From a virus: a stretch of 64,000 nt of DNA. The stretch lies in UHGV virus genome UHGV-0178594. One strand, given 5' to 3'. The notes under the pieces are model-generated. The model had not been told where the DNA came from, searched no databases, and saw only the letters and a list, made by a program, of their open reading frames with translations. Shown piece after piece: positions 4,653-51,494 of this stretch. Position 1 is the stretch's first letter; every line of letters begins with the position of its first letter. The translations under genes were made by a program, and so were the position numbers.

Positions 4653-5849
4653 TTAAGAACCTTTCTTCACATACTCCATAAACATTTTTTCAGCTTGCTC
4701 AGGTGACGTTCCTGTCATGACCAGCGCATCAATGAACGCTTGCTTCTTCAGTGCGAATTGATCGGCAAGGCGTTGCTGAAGCTCCTTGTTTTTCTGTTTC
4801 TCACGTTGCAAGGCTGCTTCTTTTGCTGCTGCCCGTTTTTTCTGTGCATCGGACAACTTTCTGGCCCTGGTCAGCTGGTCACGTAGCTTGTCAATCTTGC
4901 CGTTGTCCTTTGCCAGTTTTGTGCTTAAAGCGGCCTGGCGTTTCTGATAGAGCTTCCATTCACGTTTAGCTGCCTCAACATTCGTTTTGCTGCTACGGTT
5001 TCGATTGAACGCCTTCTCGTCTTCTTTTGTGAAGTGTTTTGTCGTGCGGCGGCGATCGTCACCAAAGGCAACTTGCGTTGCAGCTTTTTGCAGGGCGCGA
5101 GCAATACTCATCTGCCAACTGGCAGACTGTAGTCGTGTCATTGAGTGGATCACATGTTTACAGGCGACGCCTTGCAGCTTAGGGTTGCGAACTTTTGGAT
5201 AGGCGTATTCTTTTGGCGGGGCCAGGGCAAAGTTACCTGCAGTGGCGATGTAGCGATACCAGTATTGATGGCGACCGCAGTCACAATCGAAAGACACTCG
5301 CCCGGCACACAGTGATTTTGTGACTTTCAGGGCTGATTTATCGTCTTCTGCGATGTCATCGACCATCTGATCCCATTCTTCAAAACGTACCCGGACAATG
5401 TGGTGCTGGTGAACGGATATATCGGACGCTTCCACGCGGATATTAATCACATTGTGACGAAGAGATACGGGCGTAGCTCTTTTGATACCAGAACCGTCGT
5501 CTACGGCGTTATTTGCTCGCTTAATATCGATAGCCTGGCTGGACGCTACCAGTTGTGCGTATGTAATGCCAGCCGTCTTGCTGTCGTATTTTTCGCGAGC
5601 TTTGCTTCGCAGCTTTTCGAAGCCTTTCAGATCGTCACGCGTAAAGAACGTGCCGCCTTTCTTTTTCCCCAGCTTAAGAATGTCTTCGGCTGATTTATTC
5701 CTAAGCCTGCCCGGCGTGAGTGTCCTGTTCGCCTGGCGGCGTTTGCGGTTTTGCTCTTTCCTGATGAGTTCAAATACGCGTGTGAAATCCTTAGAGGACA
5801 GGCCGTCAGTGATATATCGCCCGTCCTGATTTTTCAGGAAGTCAGGCAT
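4653..5849 (-). CDS. SWIM-type zinc-finger protein with basic coiled-coil C-terminus
   Basis: 398 aa; CxC...CxH motif (FDCDCGRHQYWYRY...GVACKHVIH); K/R/Q-rich tail. Confidence 0.55.
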   Translation of the reverse strand: MPDFLKNQDGRYITDGLSSKDFTRVFELIRKEQNRKRRQANRTLTPGRLRNKSAEDILKLGKKKGGTFFTRDDLKGFEKLRSKAREKYDSKTAGITYAQLVASSQAIDIKRANNAVDDGSGIKRATPVSLRHNVINIRVEASDISVHQHHIVRVRFEEWDQMVDDIAEDDKSALKVTKSLCAGRVSFDCDCGRHQYWYRYIATAGNFALAPPKEYAYPKVRNPKLQGVACKHVIHSMTRLQSASWQMSIARALQKAATQVAFGDDRRRTTKHFTKEDEKAFNRNRSSKTNVEAAKREWKLYQKRQAALSTKLAKDNGKIDKLRDQLTRARKLSDAQKKRAAAKEAALQREKQKNKELQQRLADQFALKKQAFIDALVMTGTSPEQAEKMFMEYVKKGS

Positions 5850-6502: not shown

Positions 6503-7156
6503 TTAAAGTATCACCGTATCTTCATCAATTACTTGCCCGGCCAGCGATTTTGGTTGGGTATTTCCTGCTTTAGCTTTTTGATCGCTGATAATGGACAGGA
6601 ACGAGGCCATTATCCCTGCTTTGTTTTCTTTCTCTACCGCTCCTGTCATTTGTTTCAGGTAATCCGCGCTGGCAACATTATGGTATACCGTTGCATAGCA
6701 GCACAGAATCATCAGGATGTGCTCTGGTCGGATATCTTGCCAGTTAACTCGATAAACCTCTTCACCGTTGCCGTTGTATTCGGTATCGACGATAGAGTCG
6801 GGGATCTCAAATGCCCCTTTGTTCTTGTCAGGCAGGGATAGCAGCCTTTGTAGTTTCAGCTCCCGGTATCTCTCCATGCCGACAATGATCGCTGCTCTGC
6901 CGTCGGCGTGCCGTGTTTTTAATGTTACCTGGCTGGCACCTGTACCGGCTGAAATGGTTGGCGTGATTTCGTCAACCAGCACCTTAAATTCACTTTTACG
7001 CAGCTCGGCAATTGCTGGTGGAATTTTTCGTTTTTGTTCAATAGCAGATGCAGGGAGCGGCTTTACTTTGTCAATTACAAGCGCGCCGTCTTTCAGGACT
7101 GCCGTAGCCATCAGCGGCTTGTTAGTAGAAAGACTGAATATTGCGATCTTTTGCAT
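6503..7156 (-). CDS. hypothetical protein
   Basis: 217-aa ORF; hairpin with U-run (minus-strand reading) at ~7178-7205. Confidence 0.5.
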   Translation of the reverse strand: MQKIAIFSLSTNKPLMATAVLKDGALVIDKVKPLPASAIEQKRKIPPAIAELRKSEFKVLVDEITPTISAGTGASQVTLKTRHADGRAAIIVGMERYRELKLQRLLSLPDKNKGAFEIPDSIVDTEYNGNGEEVYRVNWQDIRPEHILMILCCYATVYHNVASADYLKQMTGAVEKENKAGIMASFLSIISDQKAKAGNTQPKSLAGQVIDEDTVIL

Positions 7157-9973: not shown

Positions 9974-10785
9974 ATTGGCAGCCTCCTTTGACTAAGTTAA
10001 GGAGCTACCGCGTGAGGTTCCAATCTCAATGGCGGTAGCACTGACTGGGTTGGAACTACCGGCGTCAAAGGGAACCGGCCTGCCTTTCGGCAGCCCAGCC
10101 AGCACTACCATTGATCTCTGAGCTAAACGCTAAGTATGGCTGTGCGATGGCATGACACAAAAAAAGACGCGTTCGGCGTCTGTGTCGCCTTTGACATTAT
10201 CCGGGGTTCCAATCCCGGCACCCGTTTTTCTAAGGTGCCGTAGAAATATACCCCACGATAATGCCAGGGCGCAACTGTGTGTTTTCTTATGCTTTTCTTT
10301 TCTTCTTTTGGGCTTGCTTGCAGGCGTAGGCCATTGCTTTAGCTTTCACTTCATCCAGCTTTCCGGTGATCACTTCTTTTCCGAGAGTGACAAACCAGTC
10401 ATAGCAACCGCCAGTGATGTTCTGGATTTGAAAGTTGAGGTAGCGAACGGTCATTTTGACACCCCCAGCGCGAGTAAAGAATGCAGATTATCGCGTGAGT
10501 GGCGGACAACGAGTGATGGGAAAAGACAGTAGCTGTTCATAGTGTAGTGACTCCTTGCTTTCGGAGCCGCCATCGACTGTTCCACGGTCTGGTGGCGGCG
10601 CAATAAAGGTTGGAACACCGTGAGTCAACGGGGGCTTTTCAGCCACCTATATTGCACCGCCATTGGTATGGCGGCGGCAATCATACGAAAAACCAAACGG
10701 TTTGTCTCAAAAAGTTGACCGGTGTACCAATCGGTTGTGAATGTACAACGGCGAATCTCACAATTCAACTTAAAATGTTAGAAAA

Positions 10786-11361
10786 TTAATTTATCAATTC
10801 AGTCACCATCTGATACAACGTCATTTCATCAGCATTGTGCCGCCTGAAATCTGCTTTGCCGCCTATTTTTCCATCAGCATGAACAGGAACCAACCAGGGG
10901 TATTGCTCGCGGATCTCTGCTGGCGCTGCGTGTTGATGGTGCCATTTACACAAAGGGAGGACGTATTTATGCGCGTTCTCTGCTGTTCTCCCGAAGATGT
11001 GGTGCAGGGATACCACAGGGCTATGCTGTCCGTGCATATGGCAGGCAATGCAGGGGAGAGCACCGATGGCAGTTTGTATCCGGCGCTCATCTGCTGTGAG
11101 TGTTCTGCCTTTCAGGCCGCGTGACGCGCGAGTTTTTTTGACAGGAGCAGAAGCGGCCTTCTCTTTTCTTCGCTGTTCATATTGCTTCGCTTTTTCAATT
11201 TTCTTTTGCCGATATTCAGGCGATGCGGCTTTTTCTCGCGCACGCTGCTGCTGGCGTTGAGCTTGCTGAAGACGCTTTGCCCTTTGTTCCTCCCGCCATT
11301 TCGGATCAGCCAGTTTTTGCAGGGCTTTTTGTGTCTGTTTCTCCCAATAGCTTTGCTTCAT
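10786..11361 (-). CDS. Ref-like HNH endonuclease (recombination enhancement function)
   Basis: Cys/His cluster LPCIACHMHGQH...LPLCKWHHQH; ORF track begins at TTG 11403, ATG at 11361 preferred; 34-bp palindrome immediately upstream. Confidence 0.55.
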   Translation of the reverse strand: MKQSYWEKQTQKALQKLADPKWREEQRAKRLQQAQRQQQRAREKAASPEYRQKKIEKAKQYEQRRKEKAASAPVKKTRASRGLKGRTLTADERRIQTAIGALPCIACHMHGQHSPVVSLHHIFGRTAENAHKYVLPLCKWHHQHAAPAEIREQYPWLVPVHADGKIGGKADFRRHNADEMTLYQMVTELIN

Positions 11362-24323: not shown

Positions 24324-24591
24324 ACTACAGACGCGTGTAGAGGAACTTGAAAAAGAGAACACTGGCCTCAAAAAAATGCTGGCACGGGCAGAAAGGGAGT
24401 TATCTGGCAAACTTCTGCCAGAAGAACTGCCACCAGCAGATATACCAAAGCGAGTGTCTCGGTGGATGAAGTCTTTTTGTTTGCCGTGGGAGGCGTTTTG
24501 GTGCTACGACCATCGCAGATGGTGTGATGAACTTGATAGCAGTTTTCCCTACTTTGCGGAAGGTAACACCTGCCCTCAATGCAGGGGATAG
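24295..24591 (+). CDS. hypothetical protein
   Basis: 98-aa ORF with coiled-coil N-terminus and Cys-rich C-terminus. Confidence 0.35.
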   Translation: MRRVMPTKAELQTRVEELEKENTGLKKMLARAERELSGKLLPEELPPADIPKRVSRWMKSFCLPWEAFWCYDHRRWCDELDSSFPYFAEGNTCPQCRG

Positions 24592-24926
24592 CATTTAACG
24601 AAATCGATCACCCTATCCTGAACTTCGGAAAGAAGGTATTTTTCACGAGCCAGGACGTCAGGATATTGACGTTCTGGCCTTACCAGATGCCGGAGCTTCC
24701 CATTAAGCAGAATGGCCTCAGAAAACACTTTTACGCTGTGCTTTATCCCCTCTGTTTCACTTTTCAGCGTCAAAATAAAGCGCAATTGCTTGTTAGCCTG
24801 ATTCAGATTCAATACCCGAATTTGCAGTTCGTCTATGCTATTTCGCAATGGGATTGATGCCACCACACTGGTGCAGTCTCTGATTGTCTGAATTGAACGG
24901 CTAACATTGAGAACGTTATTGTGCAT
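24576..24926 (-). CDS. hypothetical protein (paralog of 25234..25584)
   Basis: Shared N-terminal motif ...SIQTIRDCTSVVASIP vs ...SMQTIRTNTAVVDSFP. Confidence 0.45.
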   Translation of the reverse strand: MHNNVLNVSRSIQTIRDCTSVVASIPLRNSIDELQIRVLNLNQANKQLRFILTLKSETEGIKHSVKVFSEAILLNGKLRHLVRPERQYPDVLAREKYLLSEVQDRVIDFVKCYPLH

Positions 24927-25233: not shown

Positions 25234-25584
25234 ATGCTTAACTATCACGACAACACGCGTTCTATGCAGACAATCCGCACCAATACAGCGGTGGTCGATA
25301 GCTTTCCTGTACATACTCAAGGCCGTGAAGATACCGTGGAAGTGCGACGCATGTTGTGTCGCCGGTCACCGGGCCACCAGCACTTCATCGTAACGTTTAA
25401 AAGCGATGTAGAGCGCGCCGAGAAAATCTCTAACTCCACATCTCTGGTTAAGCCGTTAGCGGAGGTTATTGTGCGCAACAATAAGGCGCGCTTTGTCCTT
25501 GAGGAGCATCATTCTGATTTTAATGAAAAAATCGAGTCAAGCATTTTGCAATATATGAATGGCACGTTCACGCCACCAATGTGA
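25234..25584 (+). CDS. hypothetical protein (paralog of 24576..24926)
   Basis: See paralog; ATGA-like coupling with upstream ORF. Confidence 0.45.
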   Translation: MLNYHDNTRSMQTIRTNTAVVDSFPVHTQGREDTVEVRRMLCRRSPGHQHFIVTFKSDVERAEKISNSTSLVKPLAEVIVRNNKARFVLEEHHSDFNEKIESSILQYMNGTFTPPM

Positions 25585-25683: not shown

Positions 25684-26073
25684 ATGGGCTTCCCTTCTCC
25701 TGCGGCGGATTATGCAGAGAGCCGTATTTCTCTTGATCAGCAACTAATCAGACATCCTTCTGCGACCTACTTCATGCGGGCGGCAGACAGCCATCACCGT
25801 GAGGGAATATTGCAAGGTGCTTTGCTGGTGGTTGATTCCTCACTTACTCCGGTTGATGGTTCACTGCTTATATGCGCTATGGAGGGTGAATATCGCATAA
25901 AGAGATACAGGAAGTATCCGCGCCAGCACCTGGAGGATTTAAGCACCGGGAAGAAAGAGGCGTTACCAGTGGATGACGATGGATACACGGGCAGTAATGC
26001 TGTTTTTGGTGTGATCACTCATGTCATCAATGATGCCCGAAGTGGGGAATTTGATGATTGTCCGGTTATTTAA
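25684..26073 (+). CDS. UmuD'-like protein (P1 HumD-like, S24 peptidase fold)
   Basis: Strong similarity to UmuD core (GFPSPAADY...HPSATYF...VFGVITHV); 129 aa; LexA box upstream; no umuC adjacent. Confidence 0.7.
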   Translation: MGFPSPAADYAESRISLDQQLIRHPSATYFMRAADSHHREGILQGALLVVDSSLTPVDGSLLICAMEGEYRIKRYRKYPRQHLEDLSTGKKEALPVDDDGYTGSNAVFGVITHVINDARSGEFDDCPVI

Positions 26074-26145
26074 GCTGCAAAGTGCTGGTGCTTTATGCCT
26101 GTGAAGTTTATAATTGTGTACACATAACGAGTACACGAGGTGTTT

Positions 26146-26367
26146 ATGCAATCCATTAACTTCCGTACCGCGCGCGGCAACCTTTCTGAAGTGCTCAACA
26201 ATGTTGAAGCCGGGGAAGAGGTTGAAATCACCCGCAGAGGCCGTGAGCCAGCAGTAATTGTCAGCAAGGCTACTTTCGAAGCCTACAAAAAAGCGGCGCT
26301 GGATGCTGAATTTGCATCCCTGTTTGACACCCTGGACTCCACCAACAAGGAACTGGTTAACCGATAA
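26146..26367 (+). CDS. phd: Phd antitoxin (prevent-host-death)
   Basis: [39 protein letters not shown] matches P1 Phd as I recall it. Confidence 0.85.
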
Positions 26368-26747
26368 TGAGGCATATATCACCGGAAGAACTTATTGCGC
26401 TTCATGATGCGAATATAAACCGCTACGGCGGCCTGCCGGGAATGTCAGATCCGGGTAGGGCAGAGGCCATTATCGGGAGAGTTCAGGCAAGAGTTGCCTA
26501 CGAAGAGATCACCGACCTTTTCGAAGTCTCCGCAACCTACCTGGTGGCTACAGCGAGAGGGCATATATTCAATGATGCCAATAAGCGTACCGCGCTAAAC
26601 AGTGCGCTGCTATTTCTACGCCGTAACGGTATACAGGTATATGATTCTCCCGTGCTGGTGGAACTTGCGGTGGGGGCTGCAACTGGTGAAATCCCCGTAT
26701 CTTCAGTAGCGGAAAAACTACGTGAACTATATGGTTCCAATATTTGA
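26367..26747 (+). CDS. doc: Doc toxin (death-on-curing, Fic fold)
   Basis: [17 protein letters not shown]...[11 protein letters not shown]; ATGA-coupled to phd. Confidence 0.85.
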
Positions 26748-26776
26748 AAAGAAGCCCGCTCAACCAAGCGGGCTTC
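26746..26776 (-). terminator. rho-independent terminator (minus-strand reading)
   Basis: Hairpin gaagcccgct/gcgggcttc preceded on plus strand by A-run (U-run in minus transcript). Confidence 0.5.
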
Positions 26777-26827
26777 CTACTATCACTCAATGATTTTTTC
26801 TGCTGTCAGCCAGCTAATTTCTTGCTT

Positions 26828-27625
26828 TTAGGCGTCAGCATCAGCATCCTCTGCTTCCACATCTGCCGCGACTTCATCGGACTGTTCTTCTTTGGCCTGT
26901 TCTGCAATCGCCGCACGGCATTTCGCCCTGGCTGTAGCGATGGCCTCAACTTTCACGTCATTAGGAATACTTGAGGTGACATACATATCCAGTTCTTCAG
27001 CACGGAATACTGTTTTGTCCAGGAATTCATCAAGCATCCAGGTTAAGGAAAAGTCGCAGGAAATCAGCTCTACTTCGCCTTCCGCGCCGTTTGGGAAATG
27101 GATAAACATCTGCTTGCCCAAGCCAAGCACGCGACAAGCAGCCATCATTACTGCAAGTTCCAGGTCTTTGTTTTCACCTGCTACTGGTTGATCCACACCA
27201 GTAATAGTGCCGTTCAAATGGATATTATATGGCTGATATTTAGAGATGCGTTCTACACGCCATGTGCCGGTTAAGGTTCCCTGGCGGAAGATTATTGGCG
27301 TGACCGAAAGCGACAGCTCTCGAATGAGTTGTTGTGCTATGGCTGGGTCATACAGGGGATCTAACGCGATGCATCCATAAGACTGCGCCAGTTCAAACAA
27401 TTCTTCCTGTGTGCACTGAATGTCTCTTGCCGTAATAAAACGTCTGACTCCCGTTTTTCCGTCACGCCAGATAGCAATGCCATTCTCACTATCTAACTCT
27501 TCGTCTAAACCCAGGTATGTAAGGATGGTTCGCTCAATGGTGGCAAAGGGCAGGGACATATCATCGTTTACATCCACCAGCAGGCCGTTACGCAGGCGAT
27601 ATTGAATGTTTTTGGTATTTTCCAC
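26828..27625 (-). CDS. hypothetical protein with acidic C-terminal tail
   Basis: 265-aa ORF, last gene of leftward operon starting at cre-like gene. Confidence 0.5.
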   Translation of the reverse strand: MENTKNIQYRLRNGLLVDVNDDMSLPFATIERTILTYLGLDEELDSENGIAIWRDGKTGVRRFITARDIQCTQEELFELAQSYGCIALDPLYDPAIAQQLIRELSLSVTPIIFRQGTLTGTWRVERISKYQPYNIHLNGTITGVDQPVAGENKDLELAVMMAACRVLGLGKQMFIHFPNGAEGEVELISCDFSLTWMLDEFLDKTVFRAEELDMYVTSSIPNDVKVEAIATARAKCRAAIAEQAKEEQSDEVAADVEAEDADADA

Positions 27626-27631
27626 GTTAAA

Positions 27632-28282
27632 TCACTCCACAACAAACCAGTCACAGGCCAGTAAATCATCCACAGACGGCAACCAAACGCTGTCCATATT
27701 TTGTGCATCTTTCAATACAAAATGGTCACCATAAGGAACGTGAATGCCGTGTAAATTGACGCTTCCAGCGAGAACTAACCAGCAGAATTGCTTTTCGCCT
27801 TTCCACTCGCGTCGGGCAACTTTCTTGCCTTCCTTCAACCACATTAGCGCATCAGAGAAGTCGGCTGCTTCAAGGTCGATTTCTTCTTGCTGGGTGGTGA
27901 TGCCACCAGCAGAAATAGTTACGCTCCCAGTAAGATTAATCATTACGCCGTTGTCATCCGTAATGATGACCGTGGTTCCATTTTTGGAGGCGTCGTTAAC
28001 CAGGCCATAGCATTCCTCAAATGGTTTCTCCGGGGCATAGAACAGATAACCGTTTTCATAAACGATCAGATACCCGCCAGTTTTTGGTCGGTGTTTTTGT
28101 AAAAACATTGCGTCAACACAAACTGTTGCCCCTTTTGGTTCAACGAGTTCGATGCAGCCCCAAAGTGGGGCATCAGTTACTCCGAAAATAACAACATTTT
28201 TGATTTTCGATGCACTAACGTTTTTGTGAGCTTTGTATTTGGGAAGGAACTTAAAAAGCTCTTTCGTTGGCATGTTATTCAT
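27632..28282 (-). CDS. hypothetical protein with C-terminal DUF2829-like domain
   Basis: C-terminus FSDALMWLKEGKKVARREW...DWFVVE resembles DUF2829 phage domain. Confidence 0.5.
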   Translation of the reverse strand: MNNMPTKELFKFLPKYKAHKNVSASKIKNVVIFGVTDAPLWGCIELVEPKGATVCVDAMFLQKHRPKTGGYLIVYENGYLFYAPEKPFEECYGLVNDASKNGTTVIITDDNGVMINLTGSVTISAGGITTQQEEIDLEAADFSDALMWLKEGKKVARREWKGEKQFCWLVLAGSVNLHGIHVPYGDHFVLKDAQNMDSVWLPSVDDLLACDWFVVE

Positions 28283-28296
28283 AGCCTTTCCTCTAC

Positions 28297-28791
28297 TTAA
28301 AACTTTGCGTACTGAAGCGGTGTACGCTTGATTTCAATGCGGTCTTCCGATGTGCTACCAAAGCCACCAGCACCTCGCTCTGTTTCATCGAGTTCATCAA
28401 CTTCTACCAGCGATACCGGTTCAACACGCTCAAAAATGCCTTGCATGACCGCCATTCCTGGCTTGAGGCAAACGCCTTCACCACCGGGATCTGTAATCAG
28501 TTTTGCTTTGATTTCACCGCGATAATCGGAGTCGATAATTCCTACGCAGTTAGCCAGGCGCGTATGCTTTTTGCAGCCCAATCCGGAACGAGGATAAAGT
28601 TTCAGACACCAGCCAGGAGGGATCGCCATAGCGAGGCCGGTATGCACCCACCAGCTTGAGGAAATAGCGCCGTTGCTATTGATACCTGGCGTTATTTCAA
28701 CAGCAATAAAATCCATCGCCGCCGATCCGGCGGTGGCGTAAACGGGGAGTCTTGCCGCCGGATGAAGGCGTTTCACTTTCACGTTAATCAT
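28297..28791 (-). CDS. dUTPase-like protein
   Basis: dUTPase-like motifs AGSAAMDF, RSGLG, GIIDSDYRGEI, RGAGGFGST. Confidence 0.6.
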   Translation of the reverse strand: MINVKVKRLHPAARLPVYATAGSAAMDFIAVEITPGINSNGAISSSWWVHTGLAMAIPPGWCLKLYPRSGLGCKKHTRLANCVGIIDSDYRGEIKAKLITDPGGEGVCLKPGMAVMQGIFERVEPVSLVEVDELDETERGAGGFGSTSEDRIEIKRTPLQYAKF

Positions 28792-29276
28792 TGCTTTTTA
28801 GCTCTCCGGGTAAATGTATAAATCCGGCGTTTGATATGCGGAGCGGTCGGAACGGAGACGCAGGTATTCTCGATAACACCTTGTTCCTCCAGCGATCGCA
28901 CAGCACGCAAGAACTGTGATGCATCACCACCGCCAGACAGCCAGAATTTGCGGGCATAGACGCTGCCATTACGGATAATTTCTGCGATCACCCGCGCTTG
29001 CGTCTGGCTTTCTCGATAGCCAAAGAGTTCTCTTGCCTCTCCTTGTGGGATAGCCAACTGATAGCCTTTCCCGCTACGGTGACGGACAAAACCGTGAGCA
29101 ATGAGGTTCTTCAGCTCATTTCGGGTGCGGATACACCCGTACTCAGGGAACTGTGTGTTGATATCACCAGGCTTATGCCATTCATCAGGACTATCAGCCA
29201 GGAGGGACAGAAGTTTCCCTGACAGCTCAGGATTAGTGGTTGGATAGCAGTTCAGGGATGGGTAGTAAGTTTTCAT
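28788..29276 (-). CDS. hypothetical protein
   Basis: 162-aa ORF, overlapping stop/start coupling. Confidence 0.45.
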   Translation of the reverse strand: MKTYYPSLNCYPTTNPELSGKLLSLLADSPDEWHKPGDINTQFPEYGCIRTRNELKNLIAHGFVRHRSGKGYQLAIPQGEARELFGYRESQTQARVIAEIIRNGSVYARKFWLSGGGDASQFLRAVRSLEEQGVIENTCVSVPTAPHIKRRIYTFTRRAKKQ

Positions 29277-29617
29277 TTGCGCCCCCTTGCCGGATAGCGC
29301 CCGGCATTTGCATCAGGAGCAATGAAGCCGCTGGTGGGGCGAGTGAAAACATGGTTAATTTTCTCGGTCATAGCGCGATAATTTTCCTGATAGTGGGCCA
29401 GGAGTTTTTCAGCAGCAATGACGGTTACTTTCCGGACGTAGCGTTCAGCTTCCTCCAGATTTCGCCAGTTTTTTTCGAGGGTAAACACGGGAACGGCATC
29501 AAGTCCGGTCATAACACCGAACACCACGACCGCCTGGTCGCGCTTAACGCCCGCAGTGAAGGTTATGGTGTAACCGTCAACAGTGAAGCGTTTTGATTCC
29601 GTAATACGATTGTGCAA
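29273..29617 (-). CDS. hypothetical protein (immediately downstream of cre-like gene)
   Basis: 114-aa ORF. Confidence 0.45.
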   Translation of the reverse strand: MHNRITESKRFTVDGYTITFTAGVKRDQAVVVFGVMTGLDAVPVFTLEKNWRNLEEAERYVRKVTVIAAEKLLAHYQENYRAMTEKINHVFTRPTSGFIAPDANAGRYPARGRK

Positions 29618-29689
29618 AGTACCCTCCGCAATAGGCGAGGGTACTTTACATTAAAATGCACTGTCTAAAAAGATTGTTAGAAAATTAAT

Positions 29690-30718
29690 TTATGAATCCA
29701 TCAGGCGACTATTTGCACCAACGGATGCCCCGCTACGGCGCAAATATCGCATAAGTGTTTCGGGCTTTTTCCATGTGCCTTCCTGCATGATCTCGACCAT
29801 TGACACCTGTTTCTCAGCCATATCAATTGCCGCACCAACACGCGCACTATGGCCTGTCCACGTCCGGTATCTTCCTTTGTTCGGCGTGGCATCTCGTTTG
29901 TTCAGCAACCCCCAGGCATCGCTGAATATTTTCTCCATTGCAGGTGCAGTAAGGGGAGTTGTCGTGATTCTGGCCTTATTACTGCGGTGTATTGGCGGGA
30001 ATAGCACCGCGTCCGGATGTTGACGAAGTCCGGACACCTCCAGCCAGTCGTTCAGTACGGCGGTAGTGCAACGAGAAAGCACCTTATCAAGTCCGGCGGC
30101 GGTCGTGATGGTCTTCGTGTGCGAAATATGCAGCGTTACAGTGTCACCTGTTTGGTCCAGATCTCCGACGCGGATGCGCGAGATTTCTGACATACGCATC
30201 AGGGTATTGTATGCCACGAAGAGAAACGCCCGATTGCGCAGGTCCACCAGCCGCTCGGAACGGGACAGCAATACGTCGAGCAATTTCAGATCATCCCACC
30301 GCAACGGTATAGCCTGGCCTGTTCGCTCGCCTTTTTCCGTTGCCGCTTCGCGCCGGATGCGCCGCATGGCCAGAGACACACTTTTATCGTCCGACAGCGG
30401 CGGGAGGCCACATTGCGAAAGCAGCATGTTAAGCATGGCATAGTGCTTATCAATGGTGGTCGAAGCCAGATCGGCCTCATGCAACTGGAGAAGATACTCG
30501 CGGGCCATTTCCGACGTAATCGGGAACCAGGGGCGCTGGCGCGAGTTACACCACCGCGCCCAGGAATGAAACACCAGACGGAGATCACGAAGTGTATTTG
30601 GGGCATAAGCTCCCTGGTCGTTCATGAACTGCATAAAGTTTTTTGCAGCTTCCTGGTATTCGGTGCCAATATCGCGCAGAAAACCACCAGAACCGCCGGA
30701 GATAACTAGTTCACCCAT
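29690..30718 (-). CDS. Cre-like tyrosine site-specific recombinase
   Basis: Extended similarity to P1 Cre (WFP...YLL.L...SLAMRRIRRE...RNRAFLFVAYNTLMR, SGHSARVGAA.DMA); 342 aa. Confidence 0.8.
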   Translation of the reverse strand: MGELVISGGSGGFLRDIGTEYQEAAKNFMQFMNDQGAYAPNTLRDLRLVFHSWARWCNSRQRPWFPITSEMAREYLLQLHEADLASTTIDKHYAMLNMLLSQCGLPPLSDDKSVSLAMRRIRREAATEKGERTGQAIPLRWDDLKLLDVLLSRSERLVDLRNRAFLFVAYNTLMRMSEISRIRVGDLDQTGDTVTLHISHTKTITTAAGLDKVLSRCTTAVLNDWLEVSGLRQHPDAVLFPPIHRSNKARITTTPLTAPAMEKIFSDAWGLLNKRDATPNKGRYRTWTGHSARVGAAIDMAEKQVSMVEIMQEGTWKKPETLMRYLRRSGASVGANSRLMDS

Positions 30719-30870
30719 GAAACTATTAAACCTCTATATACAGATAACGCTACGTGAAAAATAGAAAACTGACAGGGTAGTTATAAGTTAATTTTCAAAA
30801 TTCAAGCCTTTGATTCGAGGCATGATTTTTCATCCTTGTCAATACTGCCAGTTTACTGGAGATTATAGCC

Positions 30871-30902
30871 TAACTTTAAATAATGCCAATTATTTAAAGT
30901 TA
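30871..30902. promoter_or_regulatory. lox-like recombination site candidate (13-bp inverted repeats, 6-bp spacer)
   Basis: TAACTTTAAATAA-tgccaa-TTATTTAAAGTTA, perfect arms; 153 bp upstream of cre-like start; arm begins TAACTT as in loxP. Confidence 0.5.
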
Positions 30903-31098
30903 GAAATCGGAACTTTTTTCCCAAAAAAACACCGACCAGATCACTTCGCAAATCCGTCAGCCATGCGGTAGCCGCTCCTGGTTACATTTTCTAATAGGAA
31001 CAATCAAAAAAAAGCGGTTTTATCCTTTACTCACCTTGTTATTCAGCATAAATTTGTCACAGGACTTTTATGTTAGAAAACTAAATCGAGTAGGAATA

Positions 31099-35511: not shown

Positions 35512-35543
35512 CTATTAGAAAATTAATATCAATTTGCTAACAC
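35512..35543. promoter_or_regulatory. degenerate palindromic operator candidate (ATTAGAA-N14-TGCTAAC)
   Basis: Upstream of Lpa-position gene; right arm abuts stop of 35543 ORF. Confidence 0.4.
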
Positions 35544-35926
35544 TACCAGCGGGATAAACGAACAACATGCTTAACTTTTGCCTCCCACTTCCCTTTATGT
35601 TTGTTGATCACCGCCTGCGCCATCTTCAGACTGGCTTCAAAATCGGCTTTTCGACCACTATTGCCCACCAGCAACGCTCCGTCTATTTCGGGTAAGCATA
35701 AATAATCCTGCTCGACGGTAAGCGGCATTGATGATGTAACCTGGCAGGCTTTCCATCTGAAGCGTATGCGCACACTCCTGACTGACATCACGACATAACC
35801 TGATATTGTGCTCTTGTGTCCGGCGTCTGTGCGTGTAGCCTTGCATGATGTTATCTTGCAGGTGATGATGTCCCAACCAATGTGCATCGCATCCTCAGTG
35901 CGTAATTTAGTAGTCTCGTACATCAA
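35543..35926 (-). CDS. hypothetical protein
   Basis: 127-aa ORF; stop abuts palindromic site 35512-35543. Confidence 0.35.
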   Translation of the reverse strand: MMYETTKLRTEDAMHIGWDIITCKITSCKATRTDAGHKSTISGYVVMSVRSVRIRFRWKACQVTSSMPLTVEQDYLCLPEIDGALLVGNSGRKADFEASLKMAQAVINKHKGKWEAKVKHVVRLSRW

Positions 35927-36498
35927 AAAACCTCCCAGTCAGTAGCGATAATATCAACTCCAGTTGCAAACCAGTCTGTCTGCGCCTGTAAATCCCCATT
36001 CATCATTACCAGGCGAGGCATAACCATCACATCACAACCTTCAACAATATCGAATGCCTCTTCCGGCAGGAATTCGACGAGCTTTTCTTTGCTACCAACA
36101 CTGCCACGGAGCATCGATATATAGCTCCCTTTAGGCCATGATGTTCGCCGGGCATCAAGCCCCTTCATCATCCAGTAAAAGGCCGATGAGAACGGGATGT
36201 TCTTTTTGGCGATGAGCACGTTATTCGCTTCTGTGTACTTCAGGAACTTAACTAACCTTACCATCGACTCGGATAACGCAATGTACGGCTCATGATTGAT
36301 TGCTGACACACTTACGCCGTGCAGTCCAACACTTACCACTGTCATATCACCGTTCTGTGCAGTTTCGATGTTGACGCCTTTACGAACTAACGCTGCATAA
36401 AGCTCCTCGCGCTTTTGCGTCCAGCATTCTCGTCGCCCTATAAAGTCACTCAAAACGAGATCATCTTCTAAATACGCGTTATCGTTCGCCGTTAACAT
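35923..36498 (-). CDS. hypothetical protein
   Basis: 191-aa ORF, coupled to downstream ORF. Confidence 0.45.
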   Translation of the reverse strand: MLTANDNAYLEDDLVLSDFIGRRECWTQKREELYAALVRKGVNIETAQNGDMTVVSVGLHGVSVSAINHEPYIALSESMVRLVKFLKYTEANNVLIAKKNIPFSSAFYWMMKGLDARRTSWPKGSYISMLRGSVGSKEKLVEFLPEEAFDIVEGCDVMVMPRLVMMNGDLQAQTDWFATGVDIIATDWEVF

Positions 36499-36950: not shown

Positions 36951-37026
36951 TGGTGGCCCCTACCGGACTTGAACCGGTGACCGTGCGATTATGAGTCGCC
37001 CGCTCTAACCACTGAGCTAAAGGGCC
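36951..37026 (-). tRNA. tRNA, anticodon CAU (tRNA-Ile2/ileX-like or Met)
   Basis: 76 nt, GGCCCTTTAGCTCAGTGGTTAGAGC...CTCATAA...GGTTCAAGTCC...CCA; close to E. coli tRNA-Ile(LAU). Confidence 0.8.
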
Positions 37027-37455
37027 AGATTACTGTTAATTACGCTTACGCTTTTTGCCAGAACCGCGTAAGGCTTTTGCCGCTTGCTCTACCCCGTATG
37101 CAACCACCAGCAGAAACAATAATGTCCACTCCGGGTTTTTATCGGCAAACGCCCAAAAATCCATCACTTGCAGCCACCTTTTAAGACAAAACGCCATTGC
37201 TGTTAGGTTGCGGTGCCGGGTGCCTCCCGGTGACGTTAACCAGTTAACAATTAACGCCGGATCACTTATGGATTCTCGTTACGCCAGTAAAAAGACCACC
37301 TTTACTGTTTTAACTGTTCCGCGTGCGCTTAGCCGCATTCACCGCAATGGTAAGAGCATTTGGCTGACTGGGCGGCGATGACGCCTGTACGCATTTGGTG
37401 ATCCGGTTCTGCTTCCGGCATTCGCTTAATTAGCCAAATACTCTTAACGTTGCGC

Positions 37456-37542
37456 TGGCGGAGAGTAATGGAATCGAACCATCATCGCTTGCGCAATGGG
37501 ACGGTTTTCAAGACCGCTTGAGCACCATGCTCCCTACTCTCC
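37456..37542 (-). tRNA. type II tRNA, anticodon UGA (Ser candidate), atypical D-arm
   Basis: 87 nt; acceptor GGAGAGT/ACTCTCC, loop CTTGAAA, long variable arm, T-loop TTCGATT, encoded CCA. Confidence 0.5.
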
Positions 37543-37647
37543 AGTGATTGTGATGGTCGGTGCTGAACTCCGACACAGGGTTGTAGCAAGCCCCGCAAAG
37601 CGCGCACTACTGTAGTTGCGGCACATCAGCCTGTGCATTCATCACAA

Positions 37648-37725
37648 CGGTAAGGGTACTTCGTAGGGATTCGAACCCTCTGCCAAGCTCGGCGATCTCC
37701 GACGTCGCAAAATACCCTTACCTGT
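37648..37725 (-). other. tRNA-like fragment / degenerate tRNA
   Basis: Contains GGGTTCGAATCCC T-arm inside an 8-bp closing helix but no canonical D or anticodon arm. Confidence 0.3.
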
Positions 37726-37730
37726 TGTGT

Positions 37731-37806
37731 TGGTGCCGGTTAACGGACTCGAACCGCTGACATCCTGCTTACAAGGCAGGCGCTCTACCAACTGAGCTAA
37801 ACCGGC
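37731..37806 (-). tRNA. tRNA-Thr (anticodon UGU)
   Basis: GCCGGTTTAGCTCAGTTGGTAGAGC...CTTGTAA...GGTTCGAGTCC...AACCGGCACCA. Confidence 0.8.
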
Positions 37807-37810
37807 AATT

Positions 37811-37897
37811 TGGTGGGGAGTGATGGAGTCGAACCATCCGAGTCGCAATGACAGTAGATTTACAGTCTACCCCGCTACCCCTACGGACTAACTCCCC
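37811..37897 (-). tRNA. tRNA-Tyr (anticodon GUA), type II
   Basis: 87 nt; anticodon loop CTGTAAA, long variable arm, T-loop TTCGACT, CCA end. Confidence 0.75.
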
Positions 37898-37902
37898 TAA
37901 AT

Positions 37903-37979
37903 TGGCGATGGTGGGTGGATTCGAACCACCGACCGACAGCTTAGAAGGCTGCTGCTCTATCCTACTGAGCTACACCATC
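37903..37979 (-). tRNA. tRNA-Arg (anticodon UCU)
   Basis: GATGGTGTAGCTCAGTAGGATAGAGC...CTTCTAA...GGTTCGAATCC...CACCATCGCCA. Confidence 0.75.
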
Positions 37980-51167: not shown

Positions 51168-51494
51168 AGTTACGGCCTCGTAAGTTGATAAACAACCTGC
51201 GACCCGCTGTCAAACAGGTGGCAGGACGTGACAGGGTTGACAGACTGGCACTTACGAAACCAGCAGGCCGAAGCCTCCCCATCACGCCCCACCATAATTC
51301 GGGCGTAACGTGGTTTTACGGACACAAAAATACCGCAATATCGGAAATGTGCGGTTGTCCGCGTAAGTATTCAGGCTGTCAAACCTGGTCGCAGAATTTG
51401 CTACGACGGCATGAATATAAGCCTGAACATTAGAAAGATCAACAGAATTTTTATCAAATGCTGTTTTTTAGTGACAATGTAAATCATACATTCT

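Follow-up and report, generated by a model that had tools for sequence, protein, structure and literature searches.

A conserved dre-distal operon of D6-type phage-plasmids encoding a dUTPase and a predicted Tad2-family protein

In phage P1, the genes distal to the site-specific recombinase gene cre are c8, ref, mat and the EcoP1I res/mod genes, all of them non-essential accessory genes. In phage D6 (NC_050154/MF356679), the same relative position, downstream of the recombinase gene dre, is occupied by orf117–orf113, of which dut, orf2 and orf3 were previously present in AY753669. This D6-lineage gene set was sequenced in 2004 and 2018, and is found in many clinical Enterobacteriaceae plasmids. 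The P1 isaA gene is non-essential, and the P1 ssb operon is a C1-controlled early operon with a C1 operator in its promoter. Among Tad2 proteins, ModTad2 is a sponge for His-ADPR, while AcrIIA7/HgmTad2 was shown to act as a gcADPR and cGG sponge, and binding is lost in the W21/N22 mutants of HgmTad2. The N7-cADPR signal of E. coli type IV Thoeris is blocked by no known Tad protein. In a 2025 in-silico survey preprint (AntiDefenseFinder-type screening), Tad2 was detected in 93% of the phage-plasmids of the D6 type and in 56% of those of the P1 type.

Here, we analysed a window of 64,000 nt (virus genome UHGV-0178594), in which five leftward genes are located between doc and a recombinase gene.

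Lineage of the element and gene order around dre

Five minus-strand ORFs were found at the coordinates in Table 1, forming the coupled leftward operon downstream of the recombinase that the initial annotation had described. That annotation had called the recombinase Cre-like. It is indeed a tyrosine recombinase, but its identity is 94% to D6 Dre and only 42% to P1 Cre. A rox site is located between dre and c1, the same place at which rox is annotated in D6 records; the reference sequence used, TAACTTTAAATAATGCCAATTATTTAAAGTTA, is the one we take to be the Dre target (Sauer & McDermott 2004). The gene order doc / isaA-like ... dre / rox / c1 / pacB-pacA-lpa is that of the D6 type, and the lpa-pacAB-c1-rox-dre segment is inverted relative to doc in comparison with P1. 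Judged by its recombinase and gene order, the window belongs to the D6 type of phage-plasmid and not to the P1 type.

Table 1. Features of the dre-distal region (positions in the window; dN/dS against D6 orthologues)
Feature	Coordinates	Strand	dN/dS	Description and basis
Terminator	26749..26778	-		Intrinsic terminator ending the leftward operon; 13-bp GC-rich stem then UUUUC; shared tail-to-tail with doc
IsaA-family protein	26828..27625	-	0.12	265 aa; D6 orf113; GTG start; phrog_2326 (E = 4.4e-125); variable acidic tail
OB–Tad2 protein	27632..28282	-	0.28	216 aa; Dec-like OB fold (aa 10–97), beta-rich linker (aa 98–137), Tad2/DUF2829 (aa 137–216); PF11195, AF2, Foldseek
dut	28297..28791	-	0.15	164 aa; canonical homotrimeric-type dUTPase; 16-aa C-terminal tail; PF00692, TIGR00576, NF001862, five motifs
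162-aa protein	28788..29276	-	0.06	D6 orf116/orf3; phrog_6669; lineage-restricted
114-aa protein	29273..29617	-	0.17	D6 orf117/orf2; phrog_1968; TTG start
Hairpin	29613..29650	-		Conserved RNA hairpin between dre and 114-aa ORF; folding of region
dre	29690..30718	-		Tyrosine recombinase; Phage_integrase, PF00589
Promoter-like site	30862..30889	-		Putative sigma-70 site, TTGGCA-16-TATAAT (11/12), overlapping rox and reading into dre; consensus scan
rox	30871..30902	.		Target of Dre recombination; 32/32 match to reference, 0 expected by chance

The same five genes are annotated in D6 as orf117–orf113, in the same order and orientation and between the same neighbours, namely, phd-doc on one side and dre, rox, c1, pacB, pacA and lpa on the other. 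The block proteins of D6 and the window share 72–87% identity. D6 differs in having a small pdcA-like ORF after doc, which the window lacks, and in its DUF2829 protein, which has 146 aa and no OB domain, whereas the window protein has one. The block is also carried by approximately 95–130 sequenced plasmids of E. coli, Salmonella and Shigella, with a best RefSeq plasmid match of 99.4% identity. The 162-aa gene was present in 130 PLSDB plasmids, just seven of which carry the window allele at an identity of at least 99%; this allele and that of IsaA are a minority type. On this synteny, the block exists as described but has been catalogued before, being the normal conserved gene set after Dre in D6-type phage-plasmids. 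The main value of the comparison is the removal of a false lead, as the block is not peculiar to this element.

The initial annotation had interpreted the locus as remodelled relative to P1. It is extremely unlikely, in our estimate, that unusual cargo replaced the P1 cra, ref and EcoP1I genes in this element and that Dut has a signalling or derepressor role like that of its staphylococcal phage counterparts. The gene content does differ from that of P1, in which none of the five block genes is found downstream of cre; the P1 post-cre genes show no homology to the block, and homologues of Mat and Ref are located elsewhere in the window, the latter at 10789–11235, about 18.5 kb away, close to the 18 kb first noted. 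However, the arrangement is typical of the lineage, as D6 and the plasmids share it, and the GC content of the segment is the same as that of its flanks. Replacement is thus largely refuted by synteny, and the block differs from the P1 locus because the lineage differs, not through remodelling of this element. The P1 gene order on which the interpretation had been based was correct for ref and res/mod, but cra is located upstream of cre. In P1-like references, where the block had been expected to be neither conserved nor annotated with known functions, it is conserved, and functions are assigned to two of its five genes.

Coupling and putative expression signals of the operon

The 114-aa/162-aa and 162-aa/dut junctions are ATGA overlaps, dut is followed by a 14-nt spacer carrying a GAGGAAAGG Shine-Dalgarno sequence, and the 265-aa gene is preceded by a 6-nt spacer. 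The dN/dS values against the D6 orthologues were low for all five ORFs (Table 1), which are therefore genuine coding genes under purifying selection.

In the consensus scan, the site overlapping rox was the sole strong promoter-like match upstream of the block, and no convincing promoter was detected inside it. The 93-nt intergenic region between dre and the 114-aa ORF folded with −26.7 kcal/mol (z = −4.84) into a hairpin, the 3′ arm of which contains both the Shine-Dalgarno sequence (GGAGG) and the start codon (TTG) of this ORF. The hairpin is kept in D6, with a G-U change. Since it is followed by just UUU, we infer a role as an attenuator or in translational control. The hairpin after dre could also end transcription, which counts against co-transcription with dre. 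P1-type C1 operators (ATTGCTCTAATAAATTT, up to three mismatches) were absent from the whole window, and hence C1 control of the block could not be argued. No Rfam family was detected within the block.

The five coupled genes lie between dre/rox and the strong terminator adjoining doc. As a whole, the block is probably what normally makes up the distal portion of the dre transcription unit in D6-lineage phage-plasmids, and would serve as a non-essential accessory operon in nucleotide hygiene and counter-defence. Transcription would start at the rox-overlapping promoter and proceed through dre, and then through the hairpin masking the ribosome-binding site of the first gene, to the terminator.

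P1 carries a restriction-modification system downstream of its recombinase gene, and relatives carry at the distal end an extra nuclease-like gene (phrog_5902, similar to terminase nuclease; no match in PADLOC). Both would fit a block that acts, in whole or in part, as a defence or exclusion module benefiting the lysogen, like EcoP1I at the equivalent place, instead of counter-defence. This is highly improbable, as none of the five block proteins was matched by PADLOC, only a single D6-like element carried complete defence systems in the survey preprint, and the two genes with assigned functions point to nucleotide hygiene and anti-defence.

The dUTPase, the D6-restricted proteins and IsaA

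The dUTPase-like assignment made in the initial annotation proved right, with all three profile scores above cut-off: PF00692 (49.9 bits; cut-off 22), TIGR00576 (116.8; cut-off 102.55) and NF001862 (116.7; cut-off 103). In the NCBIfam scan of the block, dut alone was matched. The protein matches 58 solved dUTPases (best E = 1e-23) in a near-gapless alignment, its residues 2–147 aligning to residues 8–150 of a canonical 152-aa Dut with small gaps only. Motifs I–V are all present (AGSAAMD, PRSG, GIIDSDYRG, Q117 and RGAGGFGS), with the catalytic Asp in motif III and a Phe in motif V. The canonical homotrimeric dUTPases (E. coli Dut, 1dud; best match, 7n56) have these motifs and a similar length in common with the window protein, which differs in the extra 16-residue tail after motif V and in AVMQ versus RIAQ at motif IV. 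By these motifs, Dut is an ordinary canonical trimeric dUTPase, and would hydrolyse dUTP, keeping uracil out of replicating plasmid or phage DNA. The staphylococcal-style signalling function suggested earlier found no support: the five motifs and near-gapless fit to canonical 150-aa dUTPases argue against it, as does the absence from this alignment of the staphylococcal-type extra insertion (motif VI). To our knowledge, there is no SaPI-type Stl repressor system in a D6-type phage-plasmid setting.

The 114-aa protein gave no match in Pfam, NCBIfam, PADLOC or PDB, and nothing significant was obtained in a search of its family profile against PDB. It was also considered as a homologue of P1 C8, the product of the gene after cre in P1, but no alignment was obtained. 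The 162-aa protein was found in only five clusters among 1.84 billion representatives, two of the five being chance ankyrin/PKD matches, and all IMG/VR loci carrying its gene are D6-like. An exhaustive HMMER search yielded a single real remote relative, P0116, which has no Pfam match. Residues 18–74 of the 162-aa protein resemble a winged helix, with a non-significant profile match to the EutK DNA-binding domain (E = 0.43), and the protein may bind DNA. The searches of the two family profiles against PDB also gave Gp53 (E = 0.16, not significant); a match to ATP synthase alpha (E = 0.01) was judged to be due to chance. Both the 114-aa and 162-aa proteins are D6-restricted.

The 265-aa protein shows 46.6% identity to P1 IsaA over 85% of its length. 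The acidic tail pointed out in the initial annotation is present, with 11 D/E and 2 K/R among the last 30 residues, but is absent in several family members. No functional homologue of IsaA was found by sequence or fold. In P1-type phages (SJ46 gp048-IsaA; Ro157c2YLVW gp12-gp13), the OB–Tad2 protein (approximately 59% identity) and IsaA (approximately 46%) are encoded adjacently and in the same order as in the window. There, however, the pair is located directly after ssb, far from cre, whereas the window pair is located downstream of dre. This location after ssb makes the D6 block, as read from gene order, a mosaic of a D6-specific trio (114 aa, 162 aa and dut) joined to the Tad2-like/IsaA pair. 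In P1, ssb is followed by isaA and the Tad2-like gene is lost; in the annotated 320-aa ‘IsaA’, a 56-aa leader from upstream is joined in frame to isaA. In the P1 reference annotation, IsaA thus seems to contain a fused leader that remained after the Tad2-like gene had been lost.

All P1/D6 phages have a conserved IsaA, which, together with the two D6-restricted proteins, is a reasonable candidate for new host-interaction functions. All three proteins would be non-essential accessory factors, and we speculate that they, too, serve in host interaction or counter-defence. As no functional homologue was found for three of the five proteins, the term counter-defence operon draws on one gene and its context.

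The two-domain OB–Tad2 protein

The most informative gene of the block was missed by the initial annotation, as DUF2829 is now the Tad2 family of Thoeris anti-defence proteins. The DUF2829-like C-terminal domain itself had been correctly recognized: residues 141–215 match PF11195, the former DUF2829 now named ‘Tad2-like’, with 66.7 bits (cut-off 25). In phmmer searches, the 216-aa protein matched ModTad2 (9eib; E = 7.5e-11) and SPO1 Tad2 (E = 5e-6), with weak matches to AcrIIA7 of the same family (E = 0.005–0.012). An AF2 model was obtained with a pLDDT of 77.9 (C-terminal domain, approximately 70–89; linker, <50). Foldseek aligned this model to 9eib with E = 3.7e-7 and TM 0.73–0.84, and the matches to 9eib, 8v3e and 8smf together (E = 3.7e-7 to 1e-4, target TM 0.7–0.84, probability 1.0) indicate the Tad2 fold, with its alpha-1 helix and antiparallel sheet.

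The protein has the Pfam family, fold, helix alpha-1 and Trp/Trp/Ser/Asp pocket in common with the solved Tad2 sponges (SPO1 Tad2, 8sme/8smf; ModTad2, 8v3e/9eib; HgmTad2/AcrIIA7, 8kbi), but differs from them in a 135-residue N-terminal extension, a short beta2–beta3 insert and several pocket residues. Of the residues corresponding to W25, W73, D79 and S76 of SPO1 Tad2, W160, W200 and D206 do not vary within the family, and S203 is found in 33 of its 34 members. In the window allele, Lys161 replaces the phosphate-binding Asn (N26 in SPO1 Tad2, N22 in HgmTad2), which is kept in 26 of the 34 relatives. Three further pocket positions are D, S and D versus N, V and G, and all four changes covary. 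Given these differences, the ligand of the window Tad2 is uncertain. Based on both searches and the model, the 216-aa protein is predicted to be a sponge for Thoeris immune signals, with ModTad2 as its closest solved relative. Its Tad2 domain would assemble like the solved Tad2 proteins and soak up an ADP-ribose-derived signal from host TIR (Thoeris) immunity, the removal of which would hold the Thoeris effector off during infection or induction.

The family relationship with AcrIIA7 and the four pocket differences from characterized Tad2 proteins, one of them at N26, are also consistent with an AcrIIA7-type anti-CRISPR or other non-Thoeris role, in which case the block would be unrelated to TIR signalling. 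We regard this as decidedly unlikely, since AcrIIA7/HgmTad2 is itself a gcADPR and cGG sponge, and the closest solved relatives are Thoeris sponges. Furthermore, we know of no type II-A Cas9 systems used by the enterobacterial hosts of these elements.

The N-terminal OB domain was confidently modelled and matches Dec of phage L (6e3c), with weak scores in both structure (Foldseek E = 1.7e-3, probability 1.0) and sequence (E = 0.02). The alignments cover the core of the OB fold and the beta-rich segment after it; the sequence match spans residues 56–126, including GGYL...FE..Y and I.LTG.VT.SA. This resemblance of the first 135 residues to the Dec OB fold and the start of a trimeric beta-helix, together with the annotation of some stand-alone homologues as ‘capsid decoration protein’, would suit a virion decoration or structural protein. 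Such a function is very unlikely, however, because the D6 orthologue has no OB domain, another allele has its Tad2 domain fused to Dut rather than to the OB domain, the gene is located in a non-structural operon beside the recombinase gene or ssb, the linker is modelled at low confidence, and P1 itself lacks the gene. The absence of the OB domain in D6 and the Dut–Tad2 fusion allele instead indicate that Tad2 is the conserved core of the predicted sponge. The OB domain, unlike Dec in being fused to a Tad2 domain and dispensable in D6, would be an add-on module. A fused homologue in Klebsiella phage SopranoGao is located in an early regulatory region.

The window Tad2, with pocket residues K, D, S and D versus N, N, V and G, a shortened 41-residue core and the Dec-like OB domain, may be a sponge for a different TIR-derived signal, neither gcADPR nor His-ADPR but, for example, N7-cADPR. 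The dre-distal operon, together with the second Tad2 paralogue described below, IsaA and the two D6-restricted proteins, would then constitute a multi-target counter-defence island. We consider this extended proposal unlikely; if true, such an island would belong to clinically widespread phage-plasmids. In these phage-plasmids there are one or two genes of the Tad2 family, whose pocket residues and inserts occur as discrete, recombining alleles, and this offers a tractable system for asking how the specificity of the sponges follows the several signal chemistries of E. coli Thoeris. As Tad2 in D6/P1 phage-plasmids is already reported, the residual novelty is the covarying ligand-pocket variant, the OB fusion and the three genes without assigned function.

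A second Tad2 paralogue, very divergent and without a match in PADLOC, is located at 35923–36498 in the window. In RefSeq, Tad2-like paralogues are labelled ‘MW1434 family type I TA system toxin’; this label was not reproduced with the current NCBIfam models, and the proteins match PF11195.

Gene order and lineage of the block

We found five minus-strand ORFs between the recombinase gene and doc, as the initial annotation had described, and the coupling it proposed for these leftward genes was supported: the first two junctions (114-aa/162-aa and 162-aa/dut) are ATGA stop/start overlaps, and the third and fourth are spacers of 14 nt and 6 nt with Shine–Dalgarno-like sequences. The dN/dS values against the phage D6 orthologues were 0.17, 0.06, 0.15, 0.28 and 0.12 (114-, 162-, 164-, 216- and 265-aa products, respectively), indicating that purifying selection acts on all five and that they are real genes. 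The GC content of the block was 0.45–0.52, and the flanks were not distinguishable from it by GC.

Features of the window and of the extracted plasmid loci
Feature	Coordinates	Strand	Remarks
Mat homologue	6542-7153
C4 antisense RNA genes (two)	10028-10238 and 51214-51420	-
Ref homologue	10789-11235
116-aa paralogue	24576-24926	-	ORF call
116-aa paralogue	25234-25584	+	ORF call
IsaA-like, 265 aa	26828-27625	-	ORF call
OB-Tad2, 216 aa	27632-28282	-	ORF call
dut, 164 aa	28297-28791	-	ORF call
162-aa ORF	28788-29276	-	ORF call
114-aa ORF	29273-29617	-	ORF call; TTG start
Hairpin	29613-29650	-	between dre stop and 114-aa ORF TTG start
Promoter-like site, TTGGCA-16-TATAAT	30889-30862	-	sigma-70-like; 11/12 match; reads into dre
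Second Tad2-like protein, 191 aa	35923-36498	-	PF11195 40.4 bits on residues 103-190; phrog_7362
tRNA cluster, five genes	36951-37979	-	Met, Ser, Thr, Tyr, Arg
phrog_5902 gene, 366 aa	2175-3275 of extracted locus L016		plasmid NZ_CP104667
phrog_5902 gene, 335 aa	2284-3291 of extracted locus L017		plasmid NZ_CP031917

When window positions 26000–31000 were used as the megablast query, D6 was the sole phage covering the block (86% coverage, 83.6% identity), while the matches of P1, P7, SJ46 and RCS47 were limited to the phd–doc end; in PLSDB, 95 plasmids covered at least 80% of the query, the best being NZ_CP085065.1 (99.4% identical). The recombinase showed 94% identity to D6 Dre versus 42% to Cre, and an exact 32-bp rox site lies at 30871–30902. 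The D6 annotation gives the order found here, namely orf117, orf116, dUTPase (orf115), DUF2829 (orf114) and orf113, 'similar to P1 isaA'; the 2004 immC-region record of D6 already holds dre, orf2, orf3 and dut, and the RefSeq annotation of the nearest plasmids has the D6 gene set. The 162-aa gene is present in 130 plasmids, adjoining dut in all 11 listed rows with an annotated flanking gene, and the OB-Tad2 gene in 258. In D6 and the plasmids the block is conserved, and two of its five genes are annotated with a known function. Since these elements share the order, the contrast with P1 is one of lineage, and the proposed local remodelling did not hold.

In a 2025 preprint surveying P1/D6 phage-plasmids, the reported frequency of 'Tad2 AcrIIA7 (anti-Thoeris)' was 93% among D6 sequences and 56% among P1 sequences, and one UniRef homologue is already named Thoeris anti-defense Tad2 family protein. 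The arrangement and the two functions that can be assigned were thus on record before, and the new remainder is modest: a pocket-variant allele, the Dec-like OB fusion, a further Tad2 paralogue and three genes to which no function could be given.

Tad2 proteins and their alleles

The DUF2829-like C-terminal domain noted initially was confirmed, residues 141–215 of the 216-aa protein matching PF11195 (now 'Thoeris anti-defense 2-like') at 66.7 bits. The best solved relatives by sequence were ModTad2 (9eib, 8v3e; E ~1e-10) and SPO1 Tad2 (5e-6), with weak matches to AcrIIA7/HgmTad2. In the AlphaFold model from 34 homologues (pLDDT 77.9), a low-confidence linker connects two domains that are modelled confidently. 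By Foldseek, the C-terminal domain matched ModTad2-His-ADPR (E = 3.7e-7, TM 0.73–0.84) and the N-terminal OB fold matched phage L Dec (6e3c; E = 1.7e-3; by sequence, E = 0.02). Unlike this protein, the D6 DUF2829 protein lacks the OB domain. The Tad2 domain is thus the conserved core, given also a Dut–Tad2 fusion allele, and the protein is likely a signal sponge.

Published work describes SPO1 Tad2 as a tetramer that captures 1''-3' gcADPR with residues including W25, N26, W73 and D79; for HgmTad2/AcrIIA7, cyclic dinucleotides are further ligands, and type IV Thoeris is blocked by none of the published Tad proteins. In the OB-Tad2 alignment (34 sequences), the W25, W73 and D79 equivalents were invariant and that of S76 was found in 33. 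The window allele has K at the N26 equivalent, D, S and D instead of N, V and G at three further covarying pocket positions, and a core of 41 residues versus 50 or 58 in most close phage-plasmid alleles. That alleles of this type target TIR signals other than gcADPR or His-ADPR is a possibility we consider unlikely. N-domain, linker (TTVIITDDNG... or VSLSIEGHNG...) and core (41, 50 or 58 residues) are discrete alleles reassorted among plasmids, a pattern typical of diversifying or arms-race selection.

The second Tad2-like gene is located upstream of orf 35543-35926, lpa, pacA and pacB. Its product is very divergent, with W-P in place of W-N, and showed no significant BLASTP similarity to the 216-aa copy. 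The label 'MW1434 family type I TA system toxin', given to its homologue in RefSeq, was not reproduced with current NCBIfam models.

The dUTPase and the remaining genes

The dUTPase-like call was upheld: Dut exceeded the curated cut-offs of TIGR00576, NF001862 and PF00692, its alignment to canonical enzymes was almost gapless (best E = 1e-23), and it has all of motifs I–V and a C-terminal tail of 16 aa. The alignment to canonical dUTPases contained no staphylococcal motif-VI-type insertion, and the suggested signalling role of staphylococcal style was therefore not supported; the economical reading is ordinary dUTP sanitation. A 241-aa protein of E. coli plasmids (P0062) is a natural Dut–Tad2 fusion, in which Dut breaks off within motif V (RGAGG|ITTQQEE...) and the linker and Tad2 domain follow; it lacks the OB domain, the Dut Phe lid and most of motif V, and apparently arose by deletion between short AGG repeats.

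Among phage records, the 114-aa and 162-aa proteins, both of shallow families, were confined to D6-type elements; they gave no matches in Pfam, NCBIfam or PADLOC and none significant in PDB. A winged helix in the 162-aa protein would be a guess from a non-significant profile match. Some D6-type plasmids carry an extra phrog_5902 gene between doc and the isaA-like gene, which marks the distal end of the operon as an insertion spot; its product resembles in part the terminase large-subunit nuclease region.

Transcription signals and comparison with P1

The sole strong sigma-70-like site upstream of the block overlaps rox, recalling the P1 cre promoters around lox; its ‒35 hexamer is inside the rox spacer, and it is the strongest such match in the region. 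We infer that the block is co-transcribed with dre. The hairpin (region at ‒26.7 kcal/mol, z = ‒4.84), which directly follows the dre stop codon and is conserved in D6, buries both the GGAGG Shine–Dalgarno element and the TTG codon that opens the 114-aa ORF, and may be an attenuator or translational switch. A terminator with a 13-bp stem follows the last gene. No P1-type C1 operator was found anywhere in the window.

The gene orders in P1 are lox-cra-cre-c8-ref-mat-res-mod-lxc-ulx-darB and doc-pdcA-pdcB-lpa-pacA-pacB-c1-...-lox; the initial contrast with P1 gene content was broadly right, except that cra had been placed after cre and lies between lox and cre. Relative to doc, the lpa...dre segment is inverted in the window and D6 compared with P1, so that the genes distal to dre come to lie next to doc. 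SJ46 and Ro157c2YLVW have an OB-Tad2 gene between ssb and isaA, whereas P1 lacks it there, through either precise loss or never having acquired it. The annotated P1 IsaA (320 aa; NC_005856 21569–22531, 1270–2232 of the extracted P1 locus, L008) appears to consist of isaA with an upstream leader of 56 aa joined to it in frame; this leader shares 86% identity with the beginning of the long gp048 annotation in SJ46 (compared at 4833–5678 of the extracted SJ46 locus, L006).

Elsewhere in the window, one C4 antisense RNA gene is followed by isrK and the other is accompanied by an a1/b1 target element. The paralogues of 116 aa, which share 35% identity (E = 3e-9), are divergently oriented and flank a homologue of hot (DNA polymerase III theta); D6 carries one of them, orf106.
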